Assembly (NCBI GenBank): GCA_034423195.1
Contig: DAOUIZ010000066.1
Span: 95,740-159,739 of the forward strand
DNA from: Dehalococcoidia bacterium
GTDB taxonomy: Bacteria; Chloroflexota; Dehalococcoidia; Lucifugimonadales; UBA3495
Direction: 5' to 3'
DNA: 64,000 bases
Under the pieces are notes generated by a model. The model was not told where the DNA came from. It was given only the letters and a program-made list of their open reading frames with translations, and searched no databases. A program made the translations under genes and the position numbers. Each line of letters starts with the position of its first letter. Within the stretch, counting starts at the first letter, position 1. Positions 15,446 to 51,855 of the stretch are shown here, one piece after another.

Positions 15446-15649
15446 AGTTCTTTACCGTCCGCTCAGGTTGGGGCCAGTGTAGAGCAGTTGACCGGCCGGC
15501 GCAACGGGAGGCAGCAGGCCAACATGATGGTGCCAGGGGACACGGGCCTCCCCGAGGCGCCCCCTTCCCAGCGGCGGCGGTGGACGGTATTATTGGCGGA
15601 ACGGCATTTGCGCGCCGAATCCCATCCCGAAAGTGAAGGATTAATCACC

Positions 15650-16576
15650 ATGCCCAATATCCTGGAGGACAAAGTCGCCATCGTCACCGGCTCGGGCCGG
15701 GGCGTTGGACGCGGCGTGGCCATGCTCATGGCCCAGGAAGGAGCCCAGGTCGTCGTCGTTGACCCGGGTGTCAACGTGGACGGTTCCGGCTTCGACCAGT
15801 CGGTGGCCCAGGTCGTGGCCGATGAGATCAACCAGGCCGGCGGAACGGCAGTGGCCTGCACCGAATCCGTCGCCACCATGGAAGGCGGCGAAGCCATCGT
15901 CCAGGCGGCCATCGACAACTTCGGCAAGCTGGACATAGTGGTCACCTGCGCCGGCATCCTGCGGGACCGCATGGTGTTCAACATGACCGAACAGGAATGG
16001 GATGACGTGATTGCGGTGCATCTGAAGGGCACTTTCTCCGTGGTCAAGCACGCGGCCATCCTCTTCCGGCAGCAGCGGTCGGGACGCATCATCACCTTCA
16101 CCTCGGAATCGGGGCTGATCGGCAACAGCGGACAGGCCAACTACGGCGCGGCCAAGTCGGGGATAGCGGGCTTCACCAAGGTGGTGGCCAAGGACATGGG
16201 CCGCTACGGCGTGACGGCCAACGCCATCGCGCCCCGGGCCAGCACCCGGATGATCGGCGCCATACCGGATTCGGCGGCGGAAATCCGGGCCAGGGGCGGC
16301 GTCGCTCCGATATCCGGCGAGGATGAGATAAGGGACCTGGACCCGGACGCCATTGCCCCATTCGTTTGCTTCCTGGCCAGCGATTACGCGGCCCGGGTCA
16401 ACGGGCAGACCTTCCTGGTCTATGGCAACCAGGTGTCGCTGATGTCCCAGCCCCGTCCGATGAACTCCATCTTCACCCCATCCGGCCATTGGGACATGGA
16501 AGAGCTGGCGCCGCTGGCCCGGAATGTCCTCACCGCCAACGTCGACAACCCCGCTCCGGCGGCGACGCAGGGGTGA
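15650..16576 (+). CDS. SDR family oxidoreductase (MFE-2 / Rv0148-like dehydrogenase), paralog 1
   Basis: The ATG at 15650 is in frame within track ORF 14954..16576. Motifs: TGSGRGVGRG (TGxxxGxG), NNAG-like TCAGI, and catalytic S...YGAAK. The upstream part of the track ORF is antisense to the Rieske gene. Confidence 0.9.
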   Translation: MPNILEDKVAIVTGSGRGVGRGVAMLMAQEGAQVVVVDPGVNVDGSGFDQSVAQVVADEINQAGGTAVACTESVATMEGGEAIVQAAIDNFGKLDIVVTCAGILRDRMVFNMTEQEWDDVIAVHLKGTFSVVKHAAILFRQQRSGRIITFTSESGLIGNSGQANYGAAKSGIAGFTKVVAKDMGRYGVTANAIAPRASTRMIGAIPDSAAEIRARGGVAPISGEDEIRDLDPDAIAPFVCFLASDYAARVNGQTFLVYGNQVSLMSQPRPMNSIFTPSGHWDMEELAPLARNVLTANVDNPAPAATQG

Positions 16577-17340: not shown

Positions 17341-17370
17341 ACAAGGAAAACCCAGGAGAGGAAACCCATC

Positions 17371-18285
17371 ATGCCCAATTTGCTCAAGGACAAAGTCGCC
17401 ATCGTTACCGGCTCCGGCCGGGGAGTCGGCCGGGGAGTGGCGATGCAAATGGCCGAAGAAGGGGCCAAGGTGGTCGTTGTCGACCCGGGCGTCAACGTGG
17501 ACGGTTCCGGCTTCGACCAGTCCATCGCCCAGGTGGTCGCGTCGGAGATCAACGAGGCGGGAGGCACCGCCGCCGCCTGTACCGAGTCCGTCGCCACGAT
17601 GCAGGGCGGCGAGGCTATCGTCCAGACGGCCATCGACAACTTCGGCAAGCTGGACATCGTGGTCACCTGCGCCGGCATCCTGCGCGACCGGATGGTCTTC
17701 AACATGTCGGAGCAGGAGTGGGACGATGTGATAGCGGTCCACCTGAAGGGAACGTTCACGGTGGTCAAGCACGCGGCCATCCTGTTCCGGCAGCAGCGTT
17801 CCGGGCGCATCATCACCTTCAGCTCCACGTCCGGCCTGTACGGCAACAGTGGACAGGCCAACTACGGCGCGGCCAAGGACGGCATCGCCGGGTTCACCCG
17901 CGTCGTCGCCAGGGACATGGGCCGCTACGGCGTTACGGCCAACTCCATCGCTCCCAGCGCCCAGACCCGCATGACCGGAAGCGTCCCCCAGGAGGCCCGG
18001 GACCTCCGCTCGACGCGTGGCATTACCGCCGGTTCGGGTCTGCTGGGCGAGGCCGATGACGTGGCTCCCTTCGTGACCTGGCTGGCATCGGACGAGTCGG
18101 CCCACGTCAACGGGCAGGTCTTCCACGTGACCGCCGGACTGGTGACCCTGCTGAACCAGCCCGAGCCGGTGAAGACCATCCAGAAGGACGGCCCCTGGAG
18201 CGTCGAGGAACTCATCAGCGTTTTCCCCGCCACCATCGGGATAGAGCTCTACAATCCCGCCCCGCCCCCCCCGCCATCGGCGTAG
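17371..18285 (+). CDS. SDR family oxidoreductase (MFE-2 / Rv0148-like dehydrogenase), paralog 2
   Basis: 304-aa ORF. It differs from SDR-1 at about 22 of the first ~200 residues by my count, and the C-terminal ~100 aa diverge. Confidence 0.9.
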   Translation: MPNLLKDKVAIVTGSGRGVGRGVAMQMAEEGAKVVVVDPGVNVDGSGFDQSIAQVVASEINEAGGTAAACTESVATMQGGEAIVQTAIDNFGKLDIVVTCAGILRDRMVFNMSEQEWDDVIAVHLKGTFTVVKHAAILFRQQRSGRIITFSSTSGLYGNSGQANYGAAKDGIAGFTRVVARDMGRYGVTANSIAPSAQTRMTGSVPQEARDLRSTRGITAGSGLLGEADDVAPFVTWLASDESAHVNGQVFHVTAGLVTLLNQPEPVKTIQKDGPWSVEELISVFPATIGIELYNPAPPPPPSA

Positions 18286-18343
18286 GTGGCCGCGATATGA
18301 CCCTGCCGCTCTGCCGCATTGGCCACCGGACATCGAAAGGGCC

Positions 18344-19063
18344 ATGTCATTGAAGGTGGTCACGTGGAACGTAGAATGGGCGGGGCCTAACTCACGGCGA
18401 ACCGCTGAAATCCTGCGCCGGATTGACGATCTGTCTCCCGAGGTTGTTTGTCTAACCGAGACTCATTCCGGGCTGCTGTCCCAACGTGGACACACGGTCT
18501 GCTCGCAGCCGGATTATGGGTATGCGGTGAAGGAACACCGGCGAAAGGTCATGCTCTGGTCGAAGGAACCGTGGAGCAGTGTGGATGACGTGGGAACCGA
18601 CACAATGCCGCCAGGCCGGTTCGTGTCCGGGGTAACCCGGACGTCGGTGGGCCGTGTCGCCGTGGTGGGAGTCTGCATCCCCTGGTTCATGTCACGGGCA
18701 GAGAGGAGCCGCAGTGAGGAACGCAAGGCGCCGTGGGAGGATCATGAGCAGTACCTGTCCGGACTAGGGCAAGTTCTCAGTAGTGCGCCTGGGGAGGGCC
18801 TGATGGTGATGGGCGACTTCAACCAGGCCATAGGACCGGGCAGCAGGGCGCCTGCCCAGCTTCAGATGGCCTTGCAGCAGGCATTCCCGTCGAGAATAAA
18901 GATCGTTACGTCTGAAATTGCGTTCCAGGGACGTCGAAGCATCGACCACATCGCGCTGGGCACGGATTGGAAAGTCCGCTCGGTAGAGGCGATCAGCAAT
19001 ATCCACGAGGAGAGGAAGCTGTCGGACCATTTCGGGGTTGTCGCTGATTTGTCTCCTCCGTGA
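18344..19063 (+). CDS. endonuclease/exonuclease/phosphatase (EEP) family protein
   Basis: 239-aa ORF with VVTWNVEW, VVCLTE, GDFN, SIDHI and SDHFGV, the canonical EEP catalytic blocks. GC looks lower than in neighbouring genes. Confidence 0.8.
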   Translation: MSLKVVTWNVEWAGPNSRRTAEILRRIDDLSPEVVCLTETHSGLLSQRGHTVCSQPDYGYAVKEHRRKVMLWSKEPWSSVDDVGTDTMPPGRFVSGVTRTSVGRVAVVGVCIPWFMSRAERSRSEERKAPWEDHEQYLSGLGQVLSSAPGEGLMVMGDFNQAIGPGSRAPAQLQMALQQAFPSRIKIVTSEIAFQGRRSIDHIALGTDWKVRSVEAISNIHEERKLSDHFGVVADLSPP

Positions 19064-19181
19064 TCTCATGGGAATTGGGCCGTACCGTTGCCCCCACCCT
19101 CTAAGTAATCTTCCCAAGCCCGCCCGTCCCTCTTCCGTCCGCCGGGTTGACGATGCTCGAAACCGCCCGGCACAAAATTGG

Positions 19182-19190
19182 TGATATAAT
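19182..19190 (+). promoter_or_regulatory. candidate extended -10 promoter element (TGaTATAAT)
   Basis: TGATATAAT lies 52 nt upstream of the ATG at 19242. There is no good -35. Confidence 0.35.
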
Positions 19191-19241
19191 TGTGAACAAA
19201 TCGTTTATATCGGCAAGTTGTTCCGATTTCAGGAGGATAGC

Positions 19242-20660
19242 ATGTCCCGGTTTCGCAGTTGGTATCTGCCATTCTTGATTGTCATGACGGCCTGCGCCGT
19301 CCTCGCCGCAGCCTGCACGCCGGCAGCCGAGGTCCGCGAGGTACAGGTAACAGTCGAAGTCCCCGGTGAAACCCAGGTCCAGGAAGTCCCCGTCACCGTC
19401 GAGGTTGAAAAGGAAGTGACCAGGGACGTTCCCGTGACCGTCCAGGTCGAAGTCGAGAAAGAGGTTACCAGAGATGTCCCGGTAACCGTCCAGGTCCCCA
19501 TGGAAGCCCTCGACCCCCTCATCGTCGGCAACCTCAACGCCTTCACCGGCTCCATCGCCGAGTTCGGTCCTCCCCTCCGCAACTCCGTCGAGCTCGCCGC
19601 AGACCACGTCAACCGCGCCGGTGGAGTCGGCGGTGGCTCCATGGTCATCATCAGCCGCGACACCGGCGTCAACCCGGTCCAGGGCGTGGACGGCGCCAAG
19701 GCCCTCGTTGACGTCGAAAACGCCGCCGCCATCGTCGGCGCCCTTTCCAGCGGCGTGACCATCGCCGTTGCCCAGTCCGTCACCATCCCCCAGGAAACCC
19801 TCACCATCTCCGGAGCGTCCACCGCTCCCGGCATCACCGTGCTGGAGGACAACGACTTCCTCTTCCGCACCACCCCCTCCGACGCCGCCCAGGGTGTGGT
19901 CCTGGCCCGGGTCGCCCGCGAGCAGGGTTACGAGAACGTCGGCATCATGTACATCAACAACGCCTACGGGGAAGGTCTCGCCAACCAGTTCGAGGAGAGC
20001 TTTACCGCCCTCGGCGGACGGGTCTCTTCCAGTGTCCCCCACGAAGACGTCCAGCCCACCTACGTATCCGAGCTGGAAAAGGCCACCAGCGGCGACCCCG
20101 ATGCCCTGGCCGTCCTGAGCTACACCGGCCAGTCTGCCGTCTATGTCCGCGAGGCATTGGAAGGCGGCTACGCGGACAAGTTCCTCCTTGCCGACGGCAC
20201 CAAGGGCCCGGAATGGATCGAAGGCATCAACGCCTGGGAAGCCCTGGACGGCACCCTGGGGACGGCTCCGGGCAGCCAGGGTTCTGCGGCCAAGGACGCC
20301 TTCGAGTCGGCCTACACCGAGAGCTACGGCTTCCCGCCCTCTCACCCCTTCATGGGTGAACACTACGACGCCACCGTGCTCATCGCCCTCGCCGCCGCCA
20401 AGGCCGGCAGCACCACCGACTCCGCCGCCATCCGCGACGCCCTGCGGGACGTTGCCAACGCCCCAGGCGAGGTCGTCGGCCCGGGCCGTGATGAAGTCGC
20501 CCGCGCCCTCTCCCTCATCGCCGACGGCCAGGACATCAACTACAACGGCGCCGCCGGCGACATCGAGTTCGACGAGAACGGCGACGTCTTCGGCACCATC
20601 GAAATCTGGCAGGTCAAGGACGGCGAAATCCAGTCCACCGGCCGGTTCGAGCTTCCCTAG
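19242..20660 (+). CDS. ABC transporter substrate-binding lipoprotein (Leu/Ile/Val-binding, LivK-like) with repeat tether
   Basis: AGGAGG lies 5 nt upstream of the ATG at 19242. The signal plus lipobox is FLIVMTACAVLAAAC, followed by a V/E-rich repeat tether and then a type I periplasmic binding fold (AIVGALSSG, YINNAYGEG). Confidence 0.85.
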   Translation: MSRFRSWYLPFLIVMTACAVLAAACTPAAEVREVQVTVEVPGETQVQEVPVTVEVEKEVTRDVPVTVQVEVEKEVTRDVPVTVQVPMEALDPLIVGNLNAFTGSIAEFGPPLRNSVELAADHVNRAGGVGGGSMVIISRDTGVNPVQGVDGAKALVDVENAAAIVGALSSGVTIAVAQSVTIPQETLTISGASTAPGITVLEDNDFLFRTTPSDAAQGVVLARVAREQGYENVGIMYINNAYGEGLANQFEESFTALGGRVSSSVPHEDVQPTYVSELEKATSGDPDALAVLSYTGQSAVYVREALEGGYADKFLLADGTKGPEWIEGINAWEALDGTLGTAPGSQGSAAKDAFESAYTESYGFPPSHPFMGEHYDATVLIALAAAKAGSTTDSAAIRDALRDVANAPGEVVGPGRDEVARALSLIADGQDINYNGAAGDIEFDENGDVFGTIEIWQVKDGEIQSTGRFELP

Positions 20661-20690
20661 CCGCCCGTCGTAGCCCCCCACTCCAGGCAA

Positions 20691-20723
20691 GTGCGGCGGC
20701 CTCTGGGGCCGCCGCACTCGTTT
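20691..20723 (+). terminator. rho-independent terminator
   Basis: GTGCGGCGGCC-tctgg-GGCCGCCGCAC (11-bp stem) followed by TCGTTT. Confidence 0.75.
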
Positions 20724-20851
20724 GGAAACCATCCAAAGGCCCCATCCCCCTTCCCGCCGGAAGGGCCCACCCCCACTAAGAAACTTTCTTAAAAGTCCCT
20801 CCCACCTTGACGGCAGGGCCATAGCATCAAGTCTGACTCGGTCCTTTCGCC

Positions 20852-21013
20852 GCTCTTCCCGTCATTCCCGCGCAGAGCCTGCCCCTGGCAACTGAGGAGA
20901 GACGACGAAGGAGGGAAAGGGGCGGGAATCCAGACCCCCGTCGTATGTTCCCCGCAATATTGTGTTGGCGGTGTACTGGAAGTTCCAACAAACTGACACT
21001 CATGGCAATCGCC
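20852..21013 (+). repeat. intergenic repeat family 1, long form, copy A
   Basis: Near-identical over about 80 nt to 28128..28283 (ATTCCCGCGCAG...GGCGGGAATCCAGACCCCCGT), then about 70% similar for a further ~80 nt. The arms ATTCCCGC/GCGGGAAT are inverted. Confidence 0.85.
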
Positions 21014-21107
21014 ATGTAAATCAGTCCACCTCCCGCACAGACGGGACCATGGGTCAGGATGGGTGTGTCAGGCGGGGGCGCGACAGCACCGCCTTTGAGC
21101 TGGTTTC

Positions 21108-22091
21108 CTACTGGTCCGGTATCCGGGCAATCCGGCGTTCCTCCCCCAGGATCCCTCCCGGCCGCACCAGGATAACCGCCACAATCAGCACCCCGATCAT
21201 CATCAGCCGGAAACTGGGATCGGCAAATATCCCGGGCAGGAACTGCGTGCCTGACCAGATTCCCCACACGATGAAGGCCCCCAGCACCGCCCCAAAATTG
21301 TTCCCCGACCCACCCACCATCAGCATCGCCCAGATGATGAACGTCGCCAGCAGGGGATCGAAGGTCAGCGGCGCCAGGAACCGGAAATGATGCGCGAACA
21401 GCGCCCCGCCTATCCCCATGATTATCGCCCCCAGGACGAACGCCTGCAGCTTGAACCGGAACACATTCTTTCCGCTGGCTTCCGCCGCCGTCTCATCCTC
21501 CCGGATCGCCCGCAGCACCCGTCCCCACGGCGACTTCACCGCCCGCTCCAGCATGGCGAACACCACCACCAGGACCACCGCCGCCACCACCATGTACAAG
21601 AAGTCATAATACTTCGGCGACACCAGGTCTGACAGGAACGCCGGTATCCGGTACAACCCCTTCGAGCCGTTGGCCACCCACTTCTCGTTGAGGAAGAACA
21701 GCCGCACCGTCTCGGCAATGCCCAGCGTCGAGATCGCCAGGTAGTCGTCCCGCAGGCGCAAGGTGACGTAGCCGATCCCCAGGGCGACAGCCCCGCATAC
21801 CGCCGCCGCCGCCAGTATCCCCAGGATGAACCACAGGTCGAAACCCAGGTCCAGCAGCCAGACCTCTGCCATGTTCCCGCCGAAAACGAAGTCCTCGAAC
21901 AGCGCCGGGTCCGGCGGCCTGGTGGTCAGCAGCGCCGTCGTGTAGGCCCCCAGCGCAAAGAACCCGGCTATCCCTATGTTGAACAGCCCGGTGTACCCCC
22001 AGTGGACATTCAGCCCCAGGGCGAATATCGAATAAATGCAGGCGAAAACCAGGAAACCGGCCAGGTAGCTCAGGAGCCCGGTTACTTCCAT
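21108..22091 (-). CDS. livM: branched-chain amino acid ABC transporter permease
   Basis: 327-aa polytopic ORF with GLNVHWGYTGLFNIGIAGFFALGAY, a LivM-type motif. Confidence 0.85.
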   Translation of the reverse strand: MEVTGLLSYLAGFLVFACIYSIFALGLNVHWGYTGLFNIGIAGFFALGAYTTALLTTRPPDPALFEDFVFGGNMAEVWLLDLGFDLWFILGILAAAAVCGAVALGIGYVTLRLRDDYLAISTLGIAETVRLFFLNEKWVANGSKGLYRIPAFLSDLVSPKYYDFLYMVVAAVVLVVVFAMLERAVKSPWGRVLRAIREDETAAEASGKNVFRFKLQAFVLGAIIMGIGGALFAHHFRFLAPLTFDPLLATFIIWAMLMVGGSGNNFGAVLGAFIVWGIWSGTQFLPGIFADPSFRLMMIGVLIVAVILVRPGGILGEERRIARIPDQ

Positions 22092-22349
22092 CCTCTACAC
22101 TCCATCGCCCGAATTCGTCCCGTCGTTCCCTCTCTCGTTCCCCGCCGTCAATTCCACCCTCCTCGAAAAAATCCCGGGGCTGTCGCGGATGAAAAACACC
22201 CACAAATTGGTGCTATTCTCCGGTGCATATAACTTCCATTAACAACCTTTGAGTTGTGACAGGACAGCGCCCCTCCACCCCTCCGTTGCTCCGGTTAACC
22301 AGCGCCTCCCCGGCGGAGGAAACCAGGACATGGATGCCGCTTCCCGGAC

Positions 22350-23375
22350 TCAATTCCGCCCTCCTCCGAAAATGCCCCTGGGCCTCACCAGCAGGATCAG
22401 TATCATGATCCCGAACGCCACTGCCGGCTTGTAGCTCGGATTTATCCATTGGGTCGACACCTCCGCAGTCACCCCGATAACGAACGCCGCCACCAGGGCC
22501 CCGTAGGGGTTCCCCAGTCCTCCCAGCACCACCGCCGCGAACAGCGGAATCAGGAATTTCCACCCCATGATCGGCACCAGTTGGGCCTGGTAAACGGCCA
22601 AAAGTATCCCCGCGGTGGCCGACAGCGCCGCTGCCATGCCCCACGCCCACCAGATAACCCGTTCCGTCCCGATCCCGCTGACCCGCGCCAGGTCGGGATT
22701 GTCCGCCGTCGCCCGCATGGCCTTGCCCATCCTGGTCCGGGTCAATATCACGTAGACGGCCGATACCAGGATGACCGCCACCACGCCTATGAAGATGGCG
22801 TCGGGCGGAACGCGAATGTCCATCGGCAGGTGGAAAACCTTCCTCGTTTCCCTGGGAAAGTGCTGCACCTCGCTCGTCCAGATTACCTGCACCAGGCCCC
22901 GCATCGCGATGGCGACCCCCAGCGACGCCATCGACATCACCACCACGTTGACCCCCCTTGCCCTCAGCCGCCGGTAGATTGTGATGTCCAGGATGATTGC
23001 ACCGGCCGCCACCACCGCCACGGCTATGGGAAGCGCGATCAGCACCGGGTACCCGAAGGTGAACGGACCCAGCCCACTGCCCTCGATTCCCAGCGGGGCC
23101 AGCATCCCGGCCACGATGAACAGGCCCACGTAGGCCCCCATGGTCATGTAGTCCCCATGGGCCACGTTGGCGAAGTTCATCAGGCCGTAGACCAGGGTCA
23201 GCCCGATTGCTCCCAGGGCAATAATGGCCCCGATAAACACCCCGTTCACCACCAGGCTCATCTTCACGAACGGCAGGAACCCGACCCCCACCGCGACCAG
23301 GACCAGCAAGATGGTCGTATGCGCCGGCGTCCAGGCCAGCCGCACTTGCCCGAACCCTTCCTTCCAGGAGGCCAT
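22350..23375 (-). CDS. livH: branched-chain amino acid ABC transporter permease
   Basis: Polytopic ORF with GLTLVYGLMNFANVAHGDYMTMGAY, a LivH-type motif. I prefer the ATG at 23375 to the TTG at 23396. Confidence 0.85.
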   Translation of the reverse strand: MASWKEGFGQVRLAWTPAHTTILLVLVAVGVGFLPFVKMSLVVNGVFIGAIIALGAIGLTLVYGLMNFANVAHGDYMTMGAYVGLFIVAGMLAPLGIEGSGLGPFTFGYPVLIALPIAVAVVAAGAIILDITIYRRLRARGVNVVVMSMASLGVAIAMRGLVQVIWTSEVQHFPRETRKVFHLPMDIRVPPDAIFIGVVAVILVSAVYVILTRTRMGKAMRATADNPDLARVSGIGTERVIWWAWGMAAALSATAGILLAVYQAQLVPIMGWKFLIPLFAAVVLGGLGNPYGALVAAFVIGVTAEVSTQWINPSYKPAVAFGIMILILLVRPRGIFGGGRN

Positions 23376-23407
23376 CAAATTCCCGCCTCTCCCCAATGCA
23401 ATCCCCT

Positions 23408-24112
23408 CTATCCCCCCAGGTAAAGGCTTCTGATTTCCGGATCGTTCAGCAATTCCCTCCCGTTGCCTTCCAGCCGGTTTTCCCCTGCGACCAGGACGTA
23501 TCCCCTCTGCGACATTTGCAGCGCCTCCCGGGCATTTTGCTCCACCATCAGCAGCGCGACCCCTCTGCGGTTGATCTCCCGCAGCCGCTCGAAAACGTTG
23601 TCCATCATCACCGGGGAAAGCCCCGCCGACGGTTCATCCAGCATCAACAGGCTGGGATTGAGCATCAGCGCCCGGCCAATCGCCAGCATCTGCCGCTGTC
23701 CCCCGGATAGGCTGCCCGCCTTCCGCTCCGGCCGGAAGCCCAGGTCCGGGAACAGGTCCAGCATATCCGCCATCCGCCCCCGGATATCGTCCCGCCTCAC
23801 AAACGCACCCATCTCCAGGTTCTCCCGTATGCTCAGCGAAGGAAAAACATTGTTGGTCTGGGGGACGTAGCAAAGACCCCGCCGGACAATCGCCTCCGCC
23901 GGTGACCCCGAAATCGCCTCCCCCTGGAACCTCACATCCCCCTTCCACACCCCCACCAGGCCCACGATGGCCTTCATCAGCGTGGACTTCCCGCACCCGT
24001 TGGGGCCGATGATGGTGACGATTTCCCCCTCTTCCACCGCCACCGATACGCCGTGAAGCACCTCGGTCTGCCCGTATCCGGCCACCACCCCGGAGGCATC
24101 AAGAAGTGCCAC
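23408..24112 (-). CDS. livF: branched-chain amino acid ABC transporter ATP-binding protein
   Basis: 234-aa ORF with Walker A GPNGCGKST, signature LSGGQRQML and Walker B LLMLDEPS. Confidence 0.88.
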   Translation of the reverse strand: MALLDASGVVAGYGQTEVLHGVSVAVEEGEIVTIIGPNGCGKSTLMKAIVGLVGVWKGDVRFQGEAISGSPAEAIVRRGLCYVPQTNNVFPSLSIRENLEMGAFVRRDDIRGRMADMLDLFPDLGFRPERKAGSLSGGQRQMLAIGRALMLNPSLLMLDEPSAGLSPVMMDNVFERLREINRRGVALLMVEQNAREALQMSQRGYVLVAGENRLEGNGRELLNDPEIRSLYLGG

Positions 24113-24887
24113 TCGCCCGCCTCCCCAGGTACGCTTCCATCACCTGCGGGTCATGCTGGACATCCAGCGGGGTGCCTTCGGCGATTACCGAGCCGTTCGC
24201 CATGACGATTATCGGGTCGCACATGGTCATCACGAACCGCATGTCGTGTTCAATGATGACGAACGTAATCCCCCGCTCCACGCTGGCCGTCAGGATGTTC
24301 CTGGCCAGGTCCTGCAGGAGCGTCCGGTTCACCCCGGCCCCCGGCTCGTCCAGCAGCACCACCTTCGGCTTGGACATCAGGGTCCTCCCGAACTCCAGCA
24401 GCTTCTTCTGCCCCCCCGACAGGTTGCCGGCATATTCGTTCGCCAGGTGGGAGAAGCTCAACAGCTCGAGAATCTCCAGCGCCTGTCCCTCGATGCGTTT
24501 TTCCTCCCTGGCCACCCTTCCCGGCAGCAGCCATGACGCCCAGACCCGCTCCCCGGTCTGGGAACCCGGCACCAGCATCAGGTTTTCCAGCACCGTCATC
24601 CGCTGCATTTCCCGGGGAATCTGGAACGTCCGCACCAGGCCCAGCCCGAAGGTCTGCGACATGCCCATTCCGTCGATGCGCCGGCCGTCCAGGCGAATGC
24701 TTCCGCTGCTGGGAGAGAGTGCGCCCGATATCAGGTTGAACAGCGTTGTCTTCCCCGCGCCGTTGGGGCCGATGATGCCCGTAATGGTCCCCGGCATGAT
24801 TCGCACCGAACAATGGTCCACTGCGCGGAGGCCCCCGAAGTCCTTCACCAGGTCCCGGGTTTCAAGAATGGGAGATTGTGAGCTCAC
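24099..24887 (-). CDS. livG: branched-chain amino acid ABC transporter ATP-binding protein
   Basis: Walker A GPNGAGKTT, signature LSGGQKKLL and Walker B VVLLDEPGAG. I prefer the GTG at 24887, which lies 5 nt after AAGGAG. The track start at 25049 would add an unlikely 54-aa extension. Confidence 0.85.
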   Translation of the reverse strand: MSSQSPILETRDLVKDFGGLRAVDHCSVRIMPGTITGIIGPNGAGKTTLFNLISGALSPSSGSIRLDGRRIDGMGMSQTFGLGLVRTFQIPREMQRMTVLENLMLVPGSQTGERVWASWLLPGRVAREEKRIEGQALEILELLSFSHLANEYAGNLSGGQKKLLEFGRTLMSKPKVVLLDEPGAGVNRTLLQDLARNILTASVERGITFVIIEHDMRFVMTMCDPIIVMANGSVIAEGTPLDVQHDPQVMEAYLGRRASGTS

Positions 24888-25230
24888 CGGGTCTCCTTTG
24901 CGGAGCCGAACCCCGCTTGCAGGCCCCGCTTGATGTAGGAATCGGGAACGGCCCTCCCCGACCGGCTGCATCCCGCCGGCCGCAACATGGGAACTATCCA
25001 ACAGGAACCCTCCGAAGTTAACGTGAAACTGTTGCGAAGAATAACTCAACCTGATGCACCCGCTCAGGCAGAGCCCCGGCCTGGTCCGTATCGGTCCCGC
25101 GCCCCCCCATTATCCCATACAATGCGCAACCCATGATGCCCCGCCGTGCCTGGCGCATCGGAGTCGCTATGGATGGACCGACCTGCCCCGTGCAGTGAAC
25201 GTTTTGTGAATAGGTTTGGTAAACTGGTTA

Positions 25231-26427
25231 ATGCAGCAACCCCGATATGAGAGGAAACCCTTGAGGACTTTTGTCACGGCCATCTCCATCGCCCTGCTCT
25301 TGTTGTCATTTGCCGCTTGCCAGGGAAGCCCCGGCCCGGCGGGGCAACAGGGGCCTCCCGGACCGGCAGGCTCCAGTGGCCCGGCTGGCCCCGCTGGTCC
25401 GGCCGGTGTAGCCGGAGAGCAAGGGCCCCCCGGAATAGCAGGCCCCGCTGGTCCAACCGGAGGACAAGGGCCTGCGGGCCCGGCCGGGCCCGCAGGTGAA
25501 GCGGCCACTCTCGACGAGTCTGACCTGCAACAGCTTCTTCAACAGATGGAAAGCGAGCTCCAGGACAGTCTGATCGACGCCATCGCTGAGGCGAGAATAC
25601 CCGCCGATGACCCCGCCGCCGCTCAACCGCCGGTGTCCGGCCAGCCCCAGGTCTCCGCTCCCCCCAGGTGGATGCCCGAAGAGTACACAAGGCATTTCGT
25701 GCGGGAGGCAATCCGGCGCTACGACGCCGACGGACTGGACTCCACCGCCGCCTACTACAACACCCCGGAGAGCGTGGACGGCCAGTGGTACGTATTCATA
25801 GCCGACGAGAGCGGGGCCTTGGTAGCCCACGCCAACCCCGACCTGGTTGGCGTGCCCTTGGACGATGTCCTTGGCCCCAACAGCTACCCTTCCGGCGCAG
25901 CCGTGGCGGCCACGGCCGATGAGGACGGGGCATGGTTTGACTACACCTTCCTCAATCTGGACACCGGCACCGTCCAGACCAAGCATTCCTGGATGGTGGT
26001 GCACGACGGCATCATCTTCGGCTCCGGCTGGTACGAGGAGGGCCCCCGCAAGACCGACGCCCCCGCCTATACCCGGGCCTTCGTGGAACAGGCGATCAAT
26101 CTCTACAACGCCGTGGGCTTCGAGGACACCATCGCCTACTACAACTCCAGGGACAGCATCGACGGCCAGTGGTATGTATTCATCGTCGAAGCCGAAAGCG
26201 GGCTCACCGTCGCCCACTACAATCCGGCCTTTAGGGGTAGGGACCCCAGCCTGCGGGTGGATCCCACGGGGTACTTCTACGGCGGCGACCTGCTGGCCGC
26301 CCCCGGGTCAGGGAGCTGGATCGAGTACGTCATAACCAACCCGGAAACCGGCGAAAACCAGCGGAAGCACACCTTCGCCGTCCTTCACGACGGGTACATC
26401 TTCGCTTCGGGTTGGTACGAACAGTAA
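25231..26427 (+). CDS. lipoprotein with collagen-like (G-X-Y)20 stalk and two sCache_2-like domains
   Basis: Signal plus lipobox [13 protein letters not shown]. Twenty uninterrupted G-X-Y triplets span 25324..25503. Two internally repeated ~130-aa modules follow ([29 protein letters not shown]... and [30 protein letters not shown]..., each ending ...GSGWYE). Confidence 0.8.
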
Positions 26428-26548
26428 ACTCCGTCGCTCATTTGAAAGGCCCTGCTCCGCGATCCGCCGCCCTTGACATCCTCCCACGGCTATATTACGT
26501 TATTTACACCACCCCACCACCTCTCAGGTGGCGGCGCAACCGGAACGA

Positions 26549-26623
26549 GCGGAAGTGGCTCAGTGGTAGAGCATCTCCTTGCCAAGGAGAGGGTCGCGAG
26601 TTCGAATCTCGTCTTCCGCTCCA
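26549..26623 (+). tRNA. tRNA-Gly (anticodon GCC)
   Basis: GCGGAAG acceptor, GCTC-AGTGGTA-GAGC D arm, TCTCC-TTGCCAA-GGAGA anticodon arm, GCGAG-TTCGAAT-CTCGT T arm, encoded CCA. Length 75 nt. Confidence 0.93.
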
Positions 26624-26736
26624 TCTTCCCCAGTCTTCCCTTCTCAACTACCTCTTCTCACGCCTCTTTGCAGGTATATATCCCGGTGCTTGCTGCCTTG
26701 ATTAAAGGGATAGTACCCGCCTCTCCCGGACCATCT

Positions 26737-28014
26737 TTGAAGGTCCCCGCGTTCGCCTTTCTGGTGATGTTCCTGCTGGCCTGCGGGACCCCTGAGCAGC
26801 CACCGGTTATGGAAACCCGTCTGCCAACAGCGGCAGCGGAAGTTCCAACCGTAACCCCCACGCCCACCCCCGCCCCTACGGAGGCTCCGACCTCCATTCC
26901 TGCGCCAACCCCCCTGCCGTCACCGGAACCCGATCCCCTCGACGGCCGCCCGGTCAACCTCCCCGCCGACGAGGGCCGCCACCGCGACCCGGTGGAATGG
27001 TGGTACTTCAACGGCCACCTGCAGGACGAGTTTGGCAACGATTACAGCTACCACTACGTTGCCTTCGAGTTCGTCACCCCCGAGGGAATCGTCGCCCGCC
27101 TGCTTCAATACAGCTGGGCCGATCACGGGACTGGGCGCAGGAATGCCGGGGAGCAGTTCTACCTGCCCCAGGCCGGGCTGCCCCAGCCCGCGAATGCCGG
27201 ACCCACCCCCACCCCGGTCCCCCTGGACCTCGAAACCGGCGAGATTGACGTCAGGACCGGAGACTTGGTCCTGTCCGGCGATGGGCAGGAATACTCCCTG
27301 GCATTCCAGTTCCCTGTCGGCCCCTCGGTCCGGCTTTCCGCTTCGTCCGTCAAGCCGCCGCTGCTGCACCGGAAAACCGGCCTGGTCGACCTCGGCCCGG
27401 CGGGCAGGACCTGGTACTACACGCGCCCCCGCCTGGAAACCTCGGGGACCGTCACCGTCAACGGTGAATCCATGCCCGTCGCCGGGCTTTCCTGGATGGA
27501 CCACCAGTGGGGCGACGCCACCACCGCCCTGGAGGTGGGTTGGGACTGGTTCAGCCTCAACCTGGACGATGGCGCCGACCTCATGGTCTCGATAGTCTGG
27601 GAGGTGGACGGCCGGGAGCCCATCGCCACGTACGGCACCCTGGCCCTGCCTGCATCCGGCCCCGGTGAAGGCGGGAGGATCCTCCACCTTGACGTCGGGG
27701 AAATCACGTTGACTCCCACCGGCTCGTGGTCAAGCCCGGAGACCGGCGGGGTGTACCCCATGGGCTGGGACTTGTCGGTCAGGCTTGACGACAACCGGCC
27801 GGACCTCCCCTGGGCCGAAATGACGCTGGAGCTGACCCCGCGCCGGGAGGACTCCGAGTTTCCGCCCAGCCCCTTCGTGCCAATTGATTACTGGGAAGGT
27901 GCGGTCACCGCCGAAGGCCGGCAGGACGGACTGGCCGTCTCCGGGGTGGGGTTCGTGGAGATGGTGGGTTACGCGCCCCGCCGGGCCCTCTCCCTGCCCG
28001 GCCAGGCTCCCTAA
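26737..28014 (+). CDS. lipoprotein with CrtC/AttH-like lipocalin domain
   Basis: The track ORF (26473) runs through the tRNA. The in-frame TTG at 26737 gives MKVPAFAFLVMFLLAC, a lipobox signal. A PT-rich tether follows, then VEWWYFNGHL...SWMDHQWGD, typical of AttH/hydroxyneurosporene-synthase-like proteins. Confidence 0.75.
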   Translation: MKVPAFAFLVMFLLACGTPEQPPVMETRLPTAAAEVPTVTPTPTPAPTEAPTSIPAPTPLPSPEPDPLDGRPVNLPADEGRHRDPVEWWYFNGHLQDEFGNDYSYHYVAFEFVTPEGIVARLLQYSWADHGTGRRNAGEQFYLPQAGLPQPANAGPTPTPVPLDLETGEIDVRTGDLVLSGDGQEYSLAFQFPVGPSVRLSASSVKPPLLHRKTGLVDLGPAGRTWYYTRPRLETSGTVTVNGESMPVAGLSWMDHQWGDATTALEVGWDWFSLNLDDGADLMVSIVWEVDGREPIATYGTLALPASGPGEGGRILHLDVGEITLTPTGSWSSPETGGVYPMGWDLSVRLDDNRPDLPWAEMTLELTPRREDSEFPPSPFVPIDYWEGAVTAEGRQDGLAVSGVGFVEMVGYAPRRALSLPGQAP

Positions 28015-28127
28015 CTCGCGGTACAGGGCTATCGCATGAAGGCTGACTCTAATCTTTCACCTCTTCTCCCATCATTGCCATGAAAATGGCCCATTTTCAT
28101 TCTTCATACGTGGCCTCCGCAAGGCCA

Positions 28128-28283
28128 TACGCAATTCCCGAGCAGAGCCTGCCCCTGGCGACTGAGGAGGGACGACGAAGGAGGGAAAGGGGCGGGAATC
28201 CAGACCCCCGTTGTCGGTCCCTCCACAGTATCGTGCTGGTCGTTTACCGACAGTTTGACCAAACTGCCACTCATGCGATTGCC
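28128..28283 (+). repeat. intergenic repeat family 1, long form, copy B
   Basis: See copy A. It has the same orientation and again lies downstream of a + strand gene. Confidence 0.85.
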
Positions 28284-28363
28284 CTAACTCGCGGGACCAC
28301 AATCCTTTTCACCCGGCGCTAAAATTGGTATGTTCTTGAAAGGAAGGAGAACCACCGGGGAAA

Positions 28364-28729
28364 ATGAACCGTCGGCCCCGTACCGGCGGGGCACGGTTGG
28401 AGGATGATCGGCCAACGCCTATGCTGGAACACTTGGGAATCCGCTGGGGGTACGTTTTTTTGCGCTCCGCCTCATCCATGGCCGGGGAAGACGTCAAATA
28501 CCTGATGACCCAGGCCGTGGAGATGTACCTGGAGGGGGAGGACCAGCGGAACATCCGCGGGTCCAACTTCGAGGGCAGGCTGACCACCGAGGCCAGGTAT
28601 GAACTCCTGGGAGAGTTCGGCGGCCAGCGGTTCGACGCTGAAATAGAGTCCATCTACGGAAGGGACAGCGCGACCTTCCTGGTCAGCGAGCAGACCCGGG
28701 GCGTGGGCAACGCCATCTCCCTGAACTGA
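28364..28729 (+). CDS. hypothetical protein (start uncertain)
   Basis: The C-terminal ~85 codons have typical GC3-rich usage, but the N-terminal part looks less coding-like. No recognisable motif. Confidence 0.4.
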   Translation: MNRRPRTGGARLEDDRPTPMLEHLGIRWGYVFLRSASSMAGEDVKYLMTQAVEMYLEGEDQRNIRGSNFEGRLTTEARYELLGEFGGQRFDAEIESIYGRDSATFLVSEQTRGVGNAISLN

Positions 28730-28854
28730 CCCCCGGATTCCCTCCGGGTCAACCCGGAGGACGTTCCCGCAGCATCCCCGTCCCGCCGCCGGTTGCTGGG
28801 TCCGGTTGTGCTAAAATCAGGCCAATAGAAGATGCTGCCTTAGGAGATGTTGCC

Positions 28855-30243
28855 TTGGTTACTGCGAACGATATATCGACCGAAATTTCCCTGTTGGCCC
28901 ACCTGATGCGCCGGGCCGGCTTCAGCGCCCGCCGTGAAGAACTGGAACGATACCAGGCCCAGGGGTACGACGCCACCGTAGATTGGCTGCTAAACCCCGC
29001 TGAGGACGACGGCATCGACCAGGACATCGTGGAACGCTACTACATAGACATCGACGACCTGCGTAACAATGACCCCACCAACGCCTGGTGGCTGTACCGC
29101 ATGATCAACACCGCCAATCCTCTGCAGGAGAAAATGGCCCTCTTTTGGCACGGGCTCTTCGCCACGGCCTACGAGAAAATCGAGAACGGGCGGGCGGTGG
29201 CCTCCCAGATTCAGACCTTCCGGCGCCTGGGATTGGGCAACTTCCGCACCATGCTGGTCGAGCTTTCCCGGGACCCGGCCATGATTATCTGGCTGGACAA
29301 CGACACCAACCACCGGGAAGCCCTGAACGAAAACTACGGTAGAGAGCTGCTGGAGCTGTTCTCCATGGGCGTCGGCAACTACACCGAGGACGACGTCAAG
29401 GAGTGCGCCCGGGCCTTCACCGGGTGGACCATCGCCAACCGCAACGCCCGCTACCCCTGGGGACCCTTCCCGCTGGAGTTCGAGTACCGTCCCTGGGACC
29501 ACGATGACTCGGTGAAGACCTTCCTGGGGGAACAGGGACGCTTCAACGGGGAGGACATCATTGACATTATCGTCAAGCAGCCGGCCACCGGGCGGTTCAT
29601 CGCCGAGAAGCTCTACAATTTCTTCGTGTCCGACGAACCGGCCCCCGCCGATGCCATCGAGGCCCTGAGCGCCGCCTATTTCGAGTCCAACTACAACATG
29701 CAGTCCGTCATGGACGTGCTGCTCCGCTCCGGGTTCTTCAAGGACTCGGCCTATGCCAAGGTCAAGAGCCCGGCCGAAGTCGTCGCCGCCATCCTGCGGC
29801 TGGTGGGCGATTTCCAGGAACCGCGCCCCGGACTGCTGGAAACGACCTTCGAGTCCAAGTACATGGGACAGGAGCTGCTCAACCCCCCCACCGTCGAGGG
29901 ATGGCACACCGGCCGGGAGTGGATTGACAGCGGTTCGCTGGTCAGCCGGGTCAACTTCGCCTCCGACCAGGTCGGGGACCTGAACCACGTTGGCGTGCAG
30001 GATATCGTGGACCGCCTGGCTCGGAGGGACGGCACCGTAACGCCGGAGCAACTGGTCGACGGCTGCCTCGATCTCATCGGCCCGCTGCCCGTGGAGGAAA
30101 AGACCCACACATCCCTGGTGGGCAAGGCCATGAACGGCGGTCCGCTGTCCCTGGAGACCGAAGCGGACCGGGAGGAGTTCGCCCGCCGGGTTGCCGAAAT
30201 GCTCCAGCTGATAGTTGCCACCCGGGAGTTCCAGTTCTGCTGA
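28855..30243 (+). CDS. DUF1800 domain-containing protein
   Basis: 462-aa ORF with MALFWHGLFAT and WLDNDTN blocks characteristic of DUF1800. The usual DUF1501 partner is not adjacent. Confidence 0.7.
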   Translation: MVTANDISTEISLLAHLMRRAGFSARREELERYQAQGYDATVDWLLNPAEDDGIDQDIVERYYIDIDDLRNNDPTNAWWLYRMINTANPLQEKMALFWHGLFATAYEKIENGRAVASQIQTFRRLGLGNFRTMLVELSRDPAMIIWLDNDTNHREALNENYGRELLELFSMGVGNYTEDDVKECARAFTGWTIANRNARYPWGPFPLEFEYRPWDHDDSVKTFLGEQGRFNGEDIIDIIVKQPATGRFIAEKLYNFFVSDEPAPADAIEALSAAYFESNYNMQSVMDVLLRSGFFKDSAYAKVKSPAEVVAAILRLVGDFQEPRPGLLETTFESKYMGQELLNPPTVEGWHTGREWIDSGSLVSRVNFASDQVGDLNHVGVQDIVDRLARRDGTVTPEQLVDGCLDLIGPLPVEEKTHTSLVGKAMNGGPLSLETEADREEFARRVAEMLQLIVATREFQFC

Positions 30244-30270
30244 GGAGGGGTAGATATTCAGGTAAATCGA

Positions 30271-30304
30271 CAAGAATCCCATGAGCGTTATCATGGGATT
30301 CTTG
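30271..30304. terminator. bidirectional hairpin between convergent genes
   Basis: Perfect 14-bp stem CAAGAATCCCATGA / TCATGGGATTCTTG with a 6-nt loop. There is no clear U-tract. Confidence 0.5.
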
Positions 30305-30342
30305 GTTGGAATGCATGAGATAGTGTGCGATTCGGGACAATC

Positions 30343-30696
30343 CTAAAGCAATCTCTCCACCTTTTCCACGAATCGCTTTATGTCGCTAATATCTTCTTCC
30401 ACAGTCCCCGCAACCAACCTGTTCTCGTAAAAGTTTTTGTGGAGACCGTTGGCGATGTGAAAAAATCTTGTCAACTCTCTGTCGCCTGTTTCCATTCGCA
30501 AATCGTGAACGATAGCCCATAAACTGTTGTGGCTTATGTGGGGTATTTGTCGTTGTTCGGCCACAGCCTTTATCATCAGGGCCGCTGCTCCCCAAGCCTT
30601 CTCGGATGCTTGCTCCAGGTCCCCGGCCTCGAATTCCTCGCGGGCCTTGACCAAGAAAGCCTTGCTCCGATCCCTATAAGTTTGTGTTTGTTGCAT
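30343..30696 (-). CDS. PaREP1/HEPN-like four-helix protein (paralog C)
   Basis: 117-aa ORF with EQASEKAWGAAALMIKAVAEQ and LHKNFYEN, alignable to 16589 and 16966. The gene and its flanks are AT-rich: 25/60 G+C at 30343-30402 versus 40/60 at 30001-30060. Confidence 0.55.
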   Translation of the reverse strand: MQQTQTYRDRSKAFLVKAREEFEAGDLEQASEKAWGAAALMIKAVAEQRQIPHISHNSLWAIVHDLRMETGDRELTRFFHIANGLHKNFYENRLVAGTVEEDISDIKRFVEKVERLL

Positions 30697-30943
30697 GGCG
30701 AAGGACCTCTGGAGTTGAAGTGTGACAACGATAGCTTATAGTTGTTTTTCTGAATGCGAAACATTATACAATAAGGCGTACCGCTGAGGGATTACCGTTC
30801 AGTTGCGGCTGATACGTCCACAACTGTTCCACCAGTATCCCTAATTAGCAAACGGAATAAGCAAACGGAACCCCGTCCTATCTTCAACCATCGGTGGTCG
30901 GGCCAACCCGCGGGCCCCTCTGCTGTCGTGAAAGGGTGATGCC

Positions 30944-31915
30944 ATGACCACAATCGCAGCCGGGACCCGCACCTATGAGTATGACCACACCATCGGGATG
31001 GACGACTTCGCCGGTCGCGCCTTCCGCAACCTTTCCGACCTGGCCCTGGGACCGGAGGAAGTCCTGTACGTGCTGCAGCGGGGGGAACCCCTGCACCACA
31101 ACGTTTCAGTGAAGATCTGCACCGTTGGCGAGGAATGGATCGGCGACTTCGGCCGTTACGGCACTGCCCCGGGACAGATGGTCTGGCCCGCCGGCATCGC
31201 CACTGACTCCCGGCAGCGGCTGTTCGTCTCCGACGAGTGGAACCAGCGCATTTCCGTCTTCGACACCGAGGGCAGCCTGCTGGGCGAGTGGGGTGAGGCC
31301 GGTAGCGGCCCCGGCCAGTTGAAGCGCCCCTGCGGTGTGGCGGTGGACACGGAAGGAAACCTGCTGGTGGTGGACTCGGGCAACCACCGGATTCAGAGAT
31401 TCACGCCGGAAGGCCAGCTATTGGACGGGTTTGGTGAGCACGGCCAGTCACCCGGGCAGTTCAACCTGCCCTGGGGAGTGGCCGTCAACGATGCCGGCGA
31501 CATCTTCGTTACCGACTGGCGCAACGACCGTATTCAGAAGTTCACTGGCTCCGGCGATTTCGTCCTGGAGTGGGGCGAGGCGGGGAGCGGGCCGGGGCAG
31601 TTTAACCGTCCCGCCGGAATCGCGGTGGACCGGGACGGGGACGTTTACGTAGCCGACTGGCACAACGACCGGGTGCAGGTCTTCGACGCTCAGGGTGAAT
31701 ACATCACCCACTTCATCGGCGATGCCACCATGTCCACCTGGGGGGCCCAGCTGATGCTGGCCAACCCGGTCATGGAGGGCCACCGCCAGACCGCCAAGTA
31801 CCCCGAGCGGGAGGGGCGACTGTACCGCCCCCGCTCCGTCAAGGTGGACGGCGAGAACCGCATCTTCATCGTTGACTCCAACAAGGGACGCCTGCAGGTC
31901 TACCGCAAGCTCTAG
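30944..31915 (+). CDS. NHL repeat-containing beta-propeller protein
   Basis: 323-aa ORF with six repeats of the GxGPGQFxxPxGVAVDxxGxxxVxDxxNxRIQxF type. Confidence 0.85.
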   Translation: MTTIAAGTRTYEYDHTIGMDDFAGRAFRNLSDLALGPEEVLYVLQRGEPLHHNVSVKICTVGEEWIGDFGRYGTAPGQMVWPAGIATDSRQRLFVSDEWNQRISVFDTEGSLLGEWGEAGSGPGQLKRPCGVAVDTEGNLLVVDSGNHRIQRFTPEGQLLDGFGEHGQSPGQFNLPWGVAVNDAGDIFVTDWRNDRIQKFTGSGDFVLEWGEAGSGPGQFNRPAGIAVDRDGDVYVADWHNDRVQVFDAQGEYITHFIGDATMSTWGAQLMLANPVMEGHRQTAKYPEREGRLYRPRSVKVDGENRIFIVDSNKGRLQVYRKL

Positions 31916-31955
31916 CCGGTTCCTGCCCTTGGATCCTGGCCACCAACTCCTTCTT

Positions 31956-51751: not shown

Positions 51752-51792
51752 GGTTTCTCCAATGCTTGGGGCTTTGCCCTTCCAAGCGAAAA

Positions 51793-51834
51793 CCGGGGTC
51801 TGGATTCCCGCCTGCCCGGGAATGACGGGAGAGC
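51793..51834 (-). repeat. intergenic repeat family 1, short form, copy C
   Basis: The reverse complement GCTCTCCCGTCATTCCCGGGCAGGCGGGAATCCAGACCCCGG shares both flanks with copies A and B but has only an 8-nt spacer between ATTCCC and GGGAAT. Confidence 0.75.
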
Positions 51835-51855
51835 AGCAGGCGGGAACTACGGGGG

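Follow-up and report, generated by a model that had tools for sequence, protein, structure and literature searches.

Genomic context and anatomy of the hairpin copies

This study concerns a short intergenic hairpin repeat, present in three copies (A, B and C) in a 64,000-nt stretch of the genome of a Dehalococcoidia bacterium (Chloroflexota; contig DAOUIZ010000066.1, positions 95,740 to 159,739), referred to here as the window. Judged from its sequence, the hairpin belongs to the repeat family that includes the Neisseria Transformation Sequence (NTS), and copies A and B are carried inside a miniature inverted-repeat transposable element (MITE). The three copies put forward in the original prediction were all found in place, and all of them lie outside genes, as judged by both Pfam and codon statistics, in agreement with their predicted non-coding nature. 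Gene calls by codon statistics reproduced the Pfam-supported genes around copies A to C, except for a missed bicupin gene at 51065–51752. A small minus-strand open reading frame (ORF) in copies A and B (MSVSLLEL... and MSGSLVKL..., respectively) was rejected as a gene, as its frame shifts between the copies and it received no codon-statistics call.

Copy A is located in a convergent gap between a binding-protein gene (19218–20660, plus strand) and a branched-chain permease gene (21108–22091, minus strand), and is therefore downstream of both genes. Copy B is placed 3' of a CrtC/AttH-like gene ending at 28014 (plus strand), while copy C separates two bicupin genes arranged in tandem on the minus strand. 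A shared 3' flank, GGGGCGGGAATCCAGACCCC, was matched at 20919 (plus), 28189 (plus) and 51795 (minus, two mismatches), representing three matches in the window compared with 0.02 expected from shuffled sequences. Copies A and B had been described as sharing a near-identical core of ~80 nt; 88 nt were indeed found to be common to both at 92% identity, and the full repeat proved larger than claimed, reaching a further ~46 nt in the 5' direction. The features of the three copies are as follows.

20814..21016, plus strand: copy A, a type-1 MITE of 203 nt (156–157 nt plus a 46-nt insert)
Copy A, plus strand: left inverted end CAGGGCCATAGCATCAAG; degenerate right end, reverse complement CATGGCGATTGCCATGAG
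20860..20875, plus strand: 5' half of the copy A NTS (CGTC tag, left arm ATTCCCGC, loop start GCAG), matching positions 1–16 of the NTS motif exactly
20876..20921, plus strand: 46-nt purine-rich loop insert of copy A, AGCCTGCCCCTGGCAACTGAGGAGAGACGACGAAGGAGGGAAAGGG
20922..20941, plus strand: 3' half of the copy A NTS (right arm GCGGGAAT, tail CCAG), followed by conserved ACCCCCGT
28014..28023, plus strand: left target-site duplication of copy B, ACTCGCGGTA, 9/10 identical to 28287–28296
28024..28286, plus strand: copy B, a type-1 MITE of 263 nt (157 + 46 + ~60 nt)
Copy B, plus strand: inverted ends CAGGGCTATCGCATGAAG and TAGGGCAATCGCATGAGT (reverse complement)
28070–28079, plus strand: displaced degenerate CATC tag and arm CATCATTGCC of copy B
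28080–28133, plus strand: secondary 54-nt insertion in copy B with two small hairpins
28134–28145, plus strand: left arm of the split copy B NTS, ATTCCCGAGCAG
28146–28191, plus strand: loop insert of copy B
28192–28203, plus strand: right arm and tail of the copy B NTS, GCGGGAATCCAG
28287..28296, plus strand: right target-site duplication of copy B, ACTCGCGGGA
51800..51827, minus strand: copy C, a solo short NTS, CGTCATTCCCGGGCAGGCGGGAATCCAG, with one mismatch to NTS and fitting ATTCCC-N8-GGGAAT

The left duplication of copy B starts on the final base of the TAA stop codon of the CrtC/AttH-like gene (28012–28014). Furthermore, the 54-nt insertion in this copy parts the tag and arm from the hairpin, which is now preceded by CGCA instead of CGTC; no second copy of this insertion was observed among the sequences examined.

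The hairpin belongs to the NTS/CGTC-1 family

NTS is a 28-nt sequence, CGTCATTCCCGCGMAVGCGGGAATCYRG, which contains the Neisseria repeat dRS3, and occurrences were defined in the corresponding study as sequences with at most one mismatch to it (Nat Commun 2025, PMC11893778). The consensus of the units in the lineage of the window, CCCGTCATTCCCGCGCAGGCGGGAATCCAGACCCCCG, displays no mismatch to this sequence and copy C a single one. Both NTS halves are exact in copy A, with 46 nt between them, while copy B is degenerate (tag CGCA, arm ATTCCCGA). The lineage consensus was shown to be identical over ~35 nt to a copy from Neisseria viridiae (L080), and this ~35-mer was also found in Pseudomonas oleovorans, in beta- and deltaproteobacterial metagenome-assembled genomes (MAGs) and in one Brocadiia MAG. 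The consensus unit, (C)CTCCCGTCATTCCCGCGCAGGCGGGAATCCAGACCCC(C/G)GT, comprises ~44 nt, outside of which the information content falls sharply.

CGTC-tagged repetitive extragenic palindromic sequences (REPs) are defined by the tag that gives them their name, followed by a stem of 8 bp with AT at its start, a loop of 4 nt and a CCA tail, and CGTC-1 in Neisseria has been equated with dRS3 (Di Nocera et al. 2013, PMC3733652). The unit presents precisely this arrangement (CGTC / ATTCCCGC / GCAG / GCGGGAAT / CCA). The pattern ATTCCC-N8-GGGAAT is fitted by copy C and by the consensus, the long forms A and B having N54 in its place. A resemblance to dRS3 had been noted in the original prediction as perhaps coincidental; the shared pattern stands, and the zero-mismatch fit to NTS and the identity with Neisseria over ~35 nt indicate that the resemblance represents true family membership. 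On sequence grounds, the hairpin is thus assigned to the NTS/Ssn-related-motif (SRM) family, i.e. it is a CGTC-1 REP, the oriented longer form of Neisseria dRS3.

A scan of a genome collection with GGCGGGAATCCAGACCCC yielded at least 102 stretches with matches, and 59 of the 102 listed were derived from three Dehalococcoidia MAGs (CATOSK01, CBDBDT01 and CBDBDE01). The sample of relatives analysed here consists of these 59 chunks of 8 kb, corresponding to ~5% of the three genomes, and is biased toward match-bearing DNA; the unbiased density is four copies in ~84 kb, as observed on the scaffold of the window, listed in ENA as NGUY21-1 scaffold_289. Two chunks of CBDBDT01, a MAG labelled 'Dehalococcoidia bacterium', are syntenic with the window at 88–94% nucleotide identity. 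Each of the three MAGs was found to harbour at least 30–39 units in the chunks examined, which are lower bounds. A degenerate SRM pattern was matched 88 times in 536 kb, compared with ~5 matches expected, 59 of the 88 being CGTCATTCCCGCGCAGGCGGGAATCCAG. The units are intergenic, with just one of 110 positioned well inside a called gene, and stem covariation was observed among variants, two of the eight base pairs having undergone compensatory T:A to C:G changes, with 92% of cells paired.

NTS units inside MITEs and at the junctions of hybrid elements

Alignment of the segment that had been regarded as a 3' extension of copies A and B revealed ~26–27 copies of a ~156-nt element in the loci of the related MAGs, to which the arms of copy A are 70–83% identical. 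The ends of this element are inverted (CAGGGCTATCGCATGA(A/G)... and ...TCATGCGAT(T/A)GCCCTG) over 16–18 nt, with the NTS in a central position; its size is 152–157 nt without inserts, and it encodes no transposase. Target duplications of 10 bp were observed, with 10/10 identical positions in loci L008, L041 and L051 and 9/10 in copy B of the window, compared with an estimated ~2.5–3/10 by chance. The duplication of copy A is unrecognisable (2/10), and this copy therefore looks like an old one. ISArsp11, an insertion sequence (IS) of the ISAs1 family, has the inverted repeat CAGGGCTGATGCAAAGTCG, which the MITE ends resemble, and generates a 10-bp direct repeat; based on these ISArsp11-like ends and the 10-bp duplication, the element was filed as an ISAs1-like MITE, for which terminal inverted repeats beginning with CAGGG, a duplication of 8–10 bp, a small size and the lack of a transposase were taken as diagnostic. 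Copies A and B are copies of one ISAs1-like MITE, transposed with the NTS inside. Of the proposal that the long form represents the short hairpin with a purine-rich insert of ~45 nt and a 3' extension, the insert (46 nt) was retained, and the extension is the right arm of the MITE.

Comparison with CBDBDT01 identified differences in occupancy. That MAG lacks MITE B in the orthologous gap; in turn, it carries a type-1 MITE, flanked by a perfect duplication, at the orthologue of the window gap 22092–22349 and a solo NTS at that of the gap 2378–2513, the window being without either of them. These gains and losses relative to a relative that is 88–94% identical show recent turnover.

At least two more MITE families of ~150 nt carry a central NTS, their ends being TAGTAACTATCTCAAAAC and AAGAGGGTGTGTGAGAA. 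Furthermore, hybrid elements were identified which consist of the left half of one MITE family and the right half of another, the junction being located exactly at the NTS. A single unit was present in 75 of the 83 occupied intergenic regions; arrays of the Neisseria intergenic mosaic element (NIME) type, in which RS modules are bracketed by dRS3, were not encountered, the modules here being MITE halves with outer inverted ends. By eye, the sequences flanking MITE A (20776–20813 and 21017–21080) appear as repeat debris, one part resembling the right end of a type-2 MITE (…AACTTTCTTAAAAGTCCC) and another constituting a TCCC..TTGACGG hairpin module, half of which is duplicated on the far side (AGTCCACCTCCCGCACAGACGG); at least three kinds of repeat therefore make up the mosaic that separates the binding-protein gene from the permease gene.

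The coincidence of the breakpoints of hybrid elements with the unit could be explained if the hairpins were sites of an IS110/Piv recombinase or of filamentous prophages (cf. the Neisseria Nf phages), or REPs mobilised by RAYT (IS200-like) transposases. In support of such a role, dRS3 is a known phage recombinase target (PMC11893778), and the exact NTS 28-mer was found in 60 IMG/VR stretches, often in several copies each. Against it, no unit was split by an IS or any other long insertion among the loci examined, apparent 'half' units representing divergent copies, and the protein families that recur near units are ordinary metabolic paralogues, with no nuclease, transposase or recombinase among them. 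With respect to RAYT-type REPs or REPINs, the tag is CGTC and not GTAG, and CGTC REPs are reported not to be RAYT-associated (Di Nocera et al. 2013, PMC3733652). Recombinase, phage or RAYT sites are accordingly considered a very improbable identity for these hairpins.

Conserved inserts in the hairpin loop

The 46-nt insert that distinguishes the long form was identified in 12 copies, restricted to CBDBDT01, CBDBDE01 and the window. These copies represent at least seven flank contexts, with the insert always positioned between ...GCGCAG and GCGGGAAT. Mean pairwise identity was 96% for the insert (12 copies, 36-nt core), 95% for the NTS core, 81% for the left arm and 56% for the right arm (ungapped); the identity of core and insert is far above that of the MITE arms, indicative of both being constrained or homogenised. 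A second loop insert of 22–24 nt (AGCCTGCCCCCGCGTAGGCGGGG) was predicted to form a very stable nested hairpin (z=–3.5). Both inserts begin with AGAGCCTGCCCC, as does an independent hairpin repeat, GAAGAGCCTGCCCCCGCGNAGGCGGGGG..., elsewhere in these genomes.

No match to the 46-nt insert, either exact or as a degenerate pattern, was obtained among JGI metagenome contigs, and no donor sequence was found in the loci examined. A shorter, stand-alone relative of the insert, AGCCTGCCCCTGGCGAGGTGACGAGGGAAAGGGG, is present in CBDBDT01 (L055, 3633–3680), outside NTS loops and ~30 nt from a solo NTS, and may hint at where the insert came from. The long form was also considered as a bigger stable hairpin and rejected as such, its fold being no better than that of shuffled sequences on either strand (z=+0.9 as DNA, z=+0.8 as RNA). 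For SsnA, the nuclease that recognizes NTS in Neisseria, loop identity is dispensable and the loop is extendable, arbitrary sequence being tolerated at this position (PMC11893778).

Orientation relative to genes

In the original prediction, the repeat was always oriented with its upstream gene, from which an RNA-level role was proposed, i.e. that the unit is an element in the 3' untranslated region (UTR) of that gene which would stabilise the transcript against exonucleases, provide a site for processing or give rise to a small RNA (sRNA). All three window copies indeed have the orientation of the gene located 5' of them, a number that is not beyond chance, and copy A is also downstream of the permease gene. 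A random orientation relative to genes in a survey of the whole genome had been named as an outcome that would speak against the proposal. In the census of the 59 loci from the three related MAGs, 26 units within tandem gene pairs are co-oriented and 26 anti-oriented. An additional 23 units are located in convergent gaps and 21 in divergent ones, the types of occupied gap being near the background mix, and the 12 long-form copies are of mixed orientation relative to genes.

REPs of Escherichia coli stabilise upstream mRNA, which was counted in favour of a role in the 3'UTR, as was a T-G pair in the inner stem of both insert types, which can form a wobble only in top-strand RNA. Conversely, terminator and promoter scans detected nothing linked to the units, with no U-tract at the hairpins, and the long-form RNA fold (z=+0.8) is unremarkable. 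No Rfam match was obtained for the units: at gathering thresholds, the only matches in the whole window were two tRNAs, while E-value mode applied to copies A and B returned weak chance matches only. Copy A is, moreover, ~150 nt past a GC-rich hairpin located after the binding-protein gene, and it is antisense to the permease gene, and the enzyme known to bind this motif acts on single-stranded DNA. The orientation census largely refutes the RNA-level reading, to which we attach the least credence of all the explanations weighed here.

Seven ordinary genes, including those for an acyl-CoA dehydrogenase, an aminotransferase and a dihydrolipoyl dehydrogenase, were observed to be bracketed by NTS units of the same orientation within at most 400 nt on each side (L008, L037, L042, L082, L093 and L097), a layout as discussed for Neisseria.

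Replication-strand polarity

The orientation of the units was found to be associated with replication strand, as read from GC skew. The NTS top strand is located on the local C-rich strand for 79 of 102 units (p=2e-8), and for 56 of 64 where the absolute skew exceeds 0.05. When skew was calculated from coding sequence only and balanced for gene strand, the ratio was 56:19 (p=2e-5), the effect of gene strand on skew being negligible. The polarity was observed among MITE-borne units (20:7), complete MITE copies (14:4) and other units (59:16). Furthermore, skew and NTS orientation flip together at ~0.95 Mb of contig_1 and ~2.35 Mb of contig_2 of CBDBDT01, and at ~0.75 Mb of contig_2 of CBDBDE01.

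The window conforms to this pattern, copies A and B (plus strand) being located in a negative-skew block at 18–33 kb and copy C (minus strand) in positive skew. A fourth, degenerate copy, 4 kb to the left of the window, also fits, so that all four scaffold copies agree with the polarity. The block itself (18000–33000) represents ~15 kb of negative GC skew (to –0.19) between positive-skew regions; its profile resembles an inversion or a replichore boundary and not an obvious origin, and DnaA boxes near the skew switch are at chance level (four, compared with 5.3 expected). Given the perfectly palindromic stem, the polarity can only be read from the tag and tail, which are asymmetric, as would be expected of a strand-specific factor that binds single-stranded DNA (ssDNA).

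The candidate nuclease partner

SsnA is a single-domain GIY-YIG protein of the cd10448 type, 94 aa in length, that binds NTS and cuts just 5' of the tag, in which GTC is critical for cutting; it cleaves the top strand only, and exclusively as single-stranded DNA, not RNA (PMC11893778). Genes of this type are often flanked by the motif. The role of Ssn outside Neisseria transformation is stated in that study as open. A protein-database search gave 8000 homologues, of which the best 120 were listed. Searches by regular expression, tblastn and a hidden Markov model (HMM) of 120 sequences detected ssn only outside the lineage of the window, and homologues were found to adjoin NTS in four independent loci: a Porticoccaceae MAG (L100), a Chloroflexota MAG (GCA_016716065; L104/L105) and two viral contigs (L106 and L118). 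In the Chloroflexota locus (L104, 1200–2100), approximately four NTS or NTS-like units are positioned upstream and five dRS3-type units downstream of a GIY-YIG gene encoding 96 aa. This locus has a GC content of 54% and therefore represents a lineage other than that of the window; IS66 and toxin-antitoxin genes were observed nearby.

The possibility was considered that the NTS units and MITEs are selfish relics, spread by transposition and recombination and with no current protein partner, in which case the polarity would represent an insertion or retention bias unrelated to Ssn, arising either from annealing of ssDNA into the lagging strand or from a polar signal similar to KOPS or Chi on the complementary leading strand. 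Such relics would be consistent with the target duplications and insertion polymorphisms, which show ordinary transposition, with the finding of Di Nocera et al. (2013, PMC3733652) that CGTC REPs had no transposase dedicated to them, with the 19% of SRM-rich genomes in the published survey that lack ssn (PMC11893778), and with the outcome of our own search: no ssn homologue was detected by regular expression, tblastn or HMM in ~0.56 Mb of this lineage, comprising the window, 10 kb on each side and the 59 MAG chunks. However, a purely structural effect of a palindromic stem would be strand-blind, yet the polarity is strong, and it extends to complete MITE copies with target duplications (14:4), for which a random orientation of insertion is expected. 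In addition, the identity of the core (95%), compared with that of the arms (56–81%), is indicative of constraint or homogenisation and not of decay. We regard relics without a partner as unlikely, though deserving more weight than either the recombinase or the RNA-level explanation.

A probable DNA-level, strand-specific repeat

The explanation that we favour, at a probability of roughly 0.75, is that the hairpin is a DNA-level, strand-specific repeat of the NTS/Ssn-motif type, with copies A and B representing NTS-carrying ISAs1-like MITEs and copy C a solo unit. When single-stranded, the top strand would form a stem of 8 bp closed by a 4-nt loop, with the CGTC tag on its 5' side and the CCA(G) tail on its 3' side. 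As in the characterised systems, a GIY-YIG Ssn protein of ~95 aa would bind this folded strand and cut a few nucleotides 5' of the tag. The unit would mostly occupy a central position in MITEs of ~150 nt. Copies A and B would be two presumably old copies of one of these, and MITE transposition would have carried the NTS along. Identical NTS cores could also provide the points at which different MITE families exchange halves by recombination, giving rise to a NIME-like mosaic. The long form would be an NTS unit with a 46-nt insert in its loop, the position where the published enzyme tolerates arbitrary sequence, and the cuttable strand would be retained on the template of the leading strand, where single-stranded DNA is rare. 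The polarity may reflect avoidance of self-cleavage at replication forks and is an indirect hint of cutting of the top strand.

A number of observations weigh against this explanation. The ssn homologue was absent from the ~0.56 Mb searched, and since only ~5% of the related genomes was covered, the involvement of Ssn in this lineage is something that we infer. Copy B is without the GTC of the tag, and at least this copy may therefore be inert. No significant strand bias was detected in the viral and other-phylum NTS loci tested (78:62). The 96% conservation of the 46-nt insert is unexplained if only Ssn binding mattered, and the isolated-strand fold of the long form is not above that of shuffled sequences. 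Finally, an autonomous ISAs1-type parent was not found among the loci examined, to which the search was confined.

A more far-reaching and decidedly speculative interpretation, which we hold to be doubtful, joins the polarity with the loop inserts: the polarity, in which the cuttable strand is almost always the lagging-strand sequence, would be the product of selection against self-cleavage of the exposed lagging-strand template, and the inserts would be functional add-ons rather than passive cargo. Their effect might be to modulate or prevent cutting, for instance if they paired with the pyrimidine-rich 5' flank in which the cut site lies; alternatively, they might recruit another factor.

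Other features of the window

A 37-nt repeat, CAGGGGGTTTGGGGGATGCATCCCCCAACGTACCTCC, with a palindrome of its own (GGGGGATGCATCCCCC) and unrelated to NTS, is present in inverted orientation at 31956–31992 and 47485–47521 (92% identity); a weak string resembling the left half of NTS follows its first copy at ~31992. The two tRNA genes are located at 26549–26620 and 10052–10122, the former inside a listed ORF (26473–28014), and the CrtC/AttH-like gene must therefore start after this tRNA. Three tandem bicupin paralogues with 66–76% DNA identity (repeat family D1) occupy 51065–53545, copy C being located in the gap between the second and third. A 300-nt direct repeat (15646–15945 and 17367–17666; 84% identity, 1721 nt apart), positioned inside coding regions, is probably a recent gene duplication.

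Comparison with known systems and significance

The units described here share with the NTS/SsnA system (PMC11893778) the 28-nt sequence, the orienting tag and tail, the multi-copy and intergenic nature and the bracketing of genes in the same orientation. The host differs, being Dehalococcoidia here compared with mainly Pseudomonadati examples there, as does the layout, which is mostly single and MITE-embedded instead of clustered arrays, and the loop, where inserts of 22–24 and 46 nt contrast with the N(0-5) of the motif. The polarity with respect to replication strand is not mentioned in that study. Similarly, CGTC-1 REPs (PMC3733652) have in common with the present units the CGTC tag, the 8-bp stem starting with AT, the 4-nt loop and the CCA tail; they were reported in five phyla without Chloroflexi, whereas the present host belongs to the Chloroflexota, and were mostly head-to-head dimers not regularly joined to other repeats, whereas those observed here are mostly singletons in MITEs.

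With dRS3 and NIMEs the units share the ATTCCC-N8-GGGAAT core and the formation of intergenic mosaics joined at the hairpin. In NIMEs, however, each RS module has dRS3 at either end and the modules form arrays, while here one NTS is positioned between two half-modules with transposon-type outer ends and target duplications. The inverted ends (CAGGGCT...), which are like the inverted repeat of ISArsp11, and the 10-bp duplication are as in ISAs1 ISs and MITEs, from which the element differs by its size of ~156 nt, its lack of a transposase and its central NTS. Finally, E. coli REPs and bacterial interspersed mosaic elements (BIMEs), as well as RAYT-REPINs, are likewise short, GC-rich extragenic palindromes with an unpaired tag, a high copy number and mosaic arrangements. 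Their tag is GTAG as opposed to CGTC, for which no RAYT association is known, and their partner is an HUH tyrosine transposase, compared with the GIY-YIG nuclease proposed here.

The hairpin family was thus already known, and this largely explains the repeat noticed in the original prediction. What is new is that a repeat of the NTS/Ssn type, identical to that of Neisseria, is abundant in uncultured Dehalococcoidia, that the NTS travels inside MITEs and serves as a junction for the shuffling of MITE halves, that conserved long-loop variants exist, and that orientation is tied to the replication strand. This last link would provide a simple genomic read-out of the action of a site-specific single-stranded DNase in vivo. 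If the joint reading of polarity and loop inserts, tentative as it is, were true, it would represent the first in-genome signature of Ssn-type nucleases acting on replication-fork ssDNA, beyond transforming DNA.

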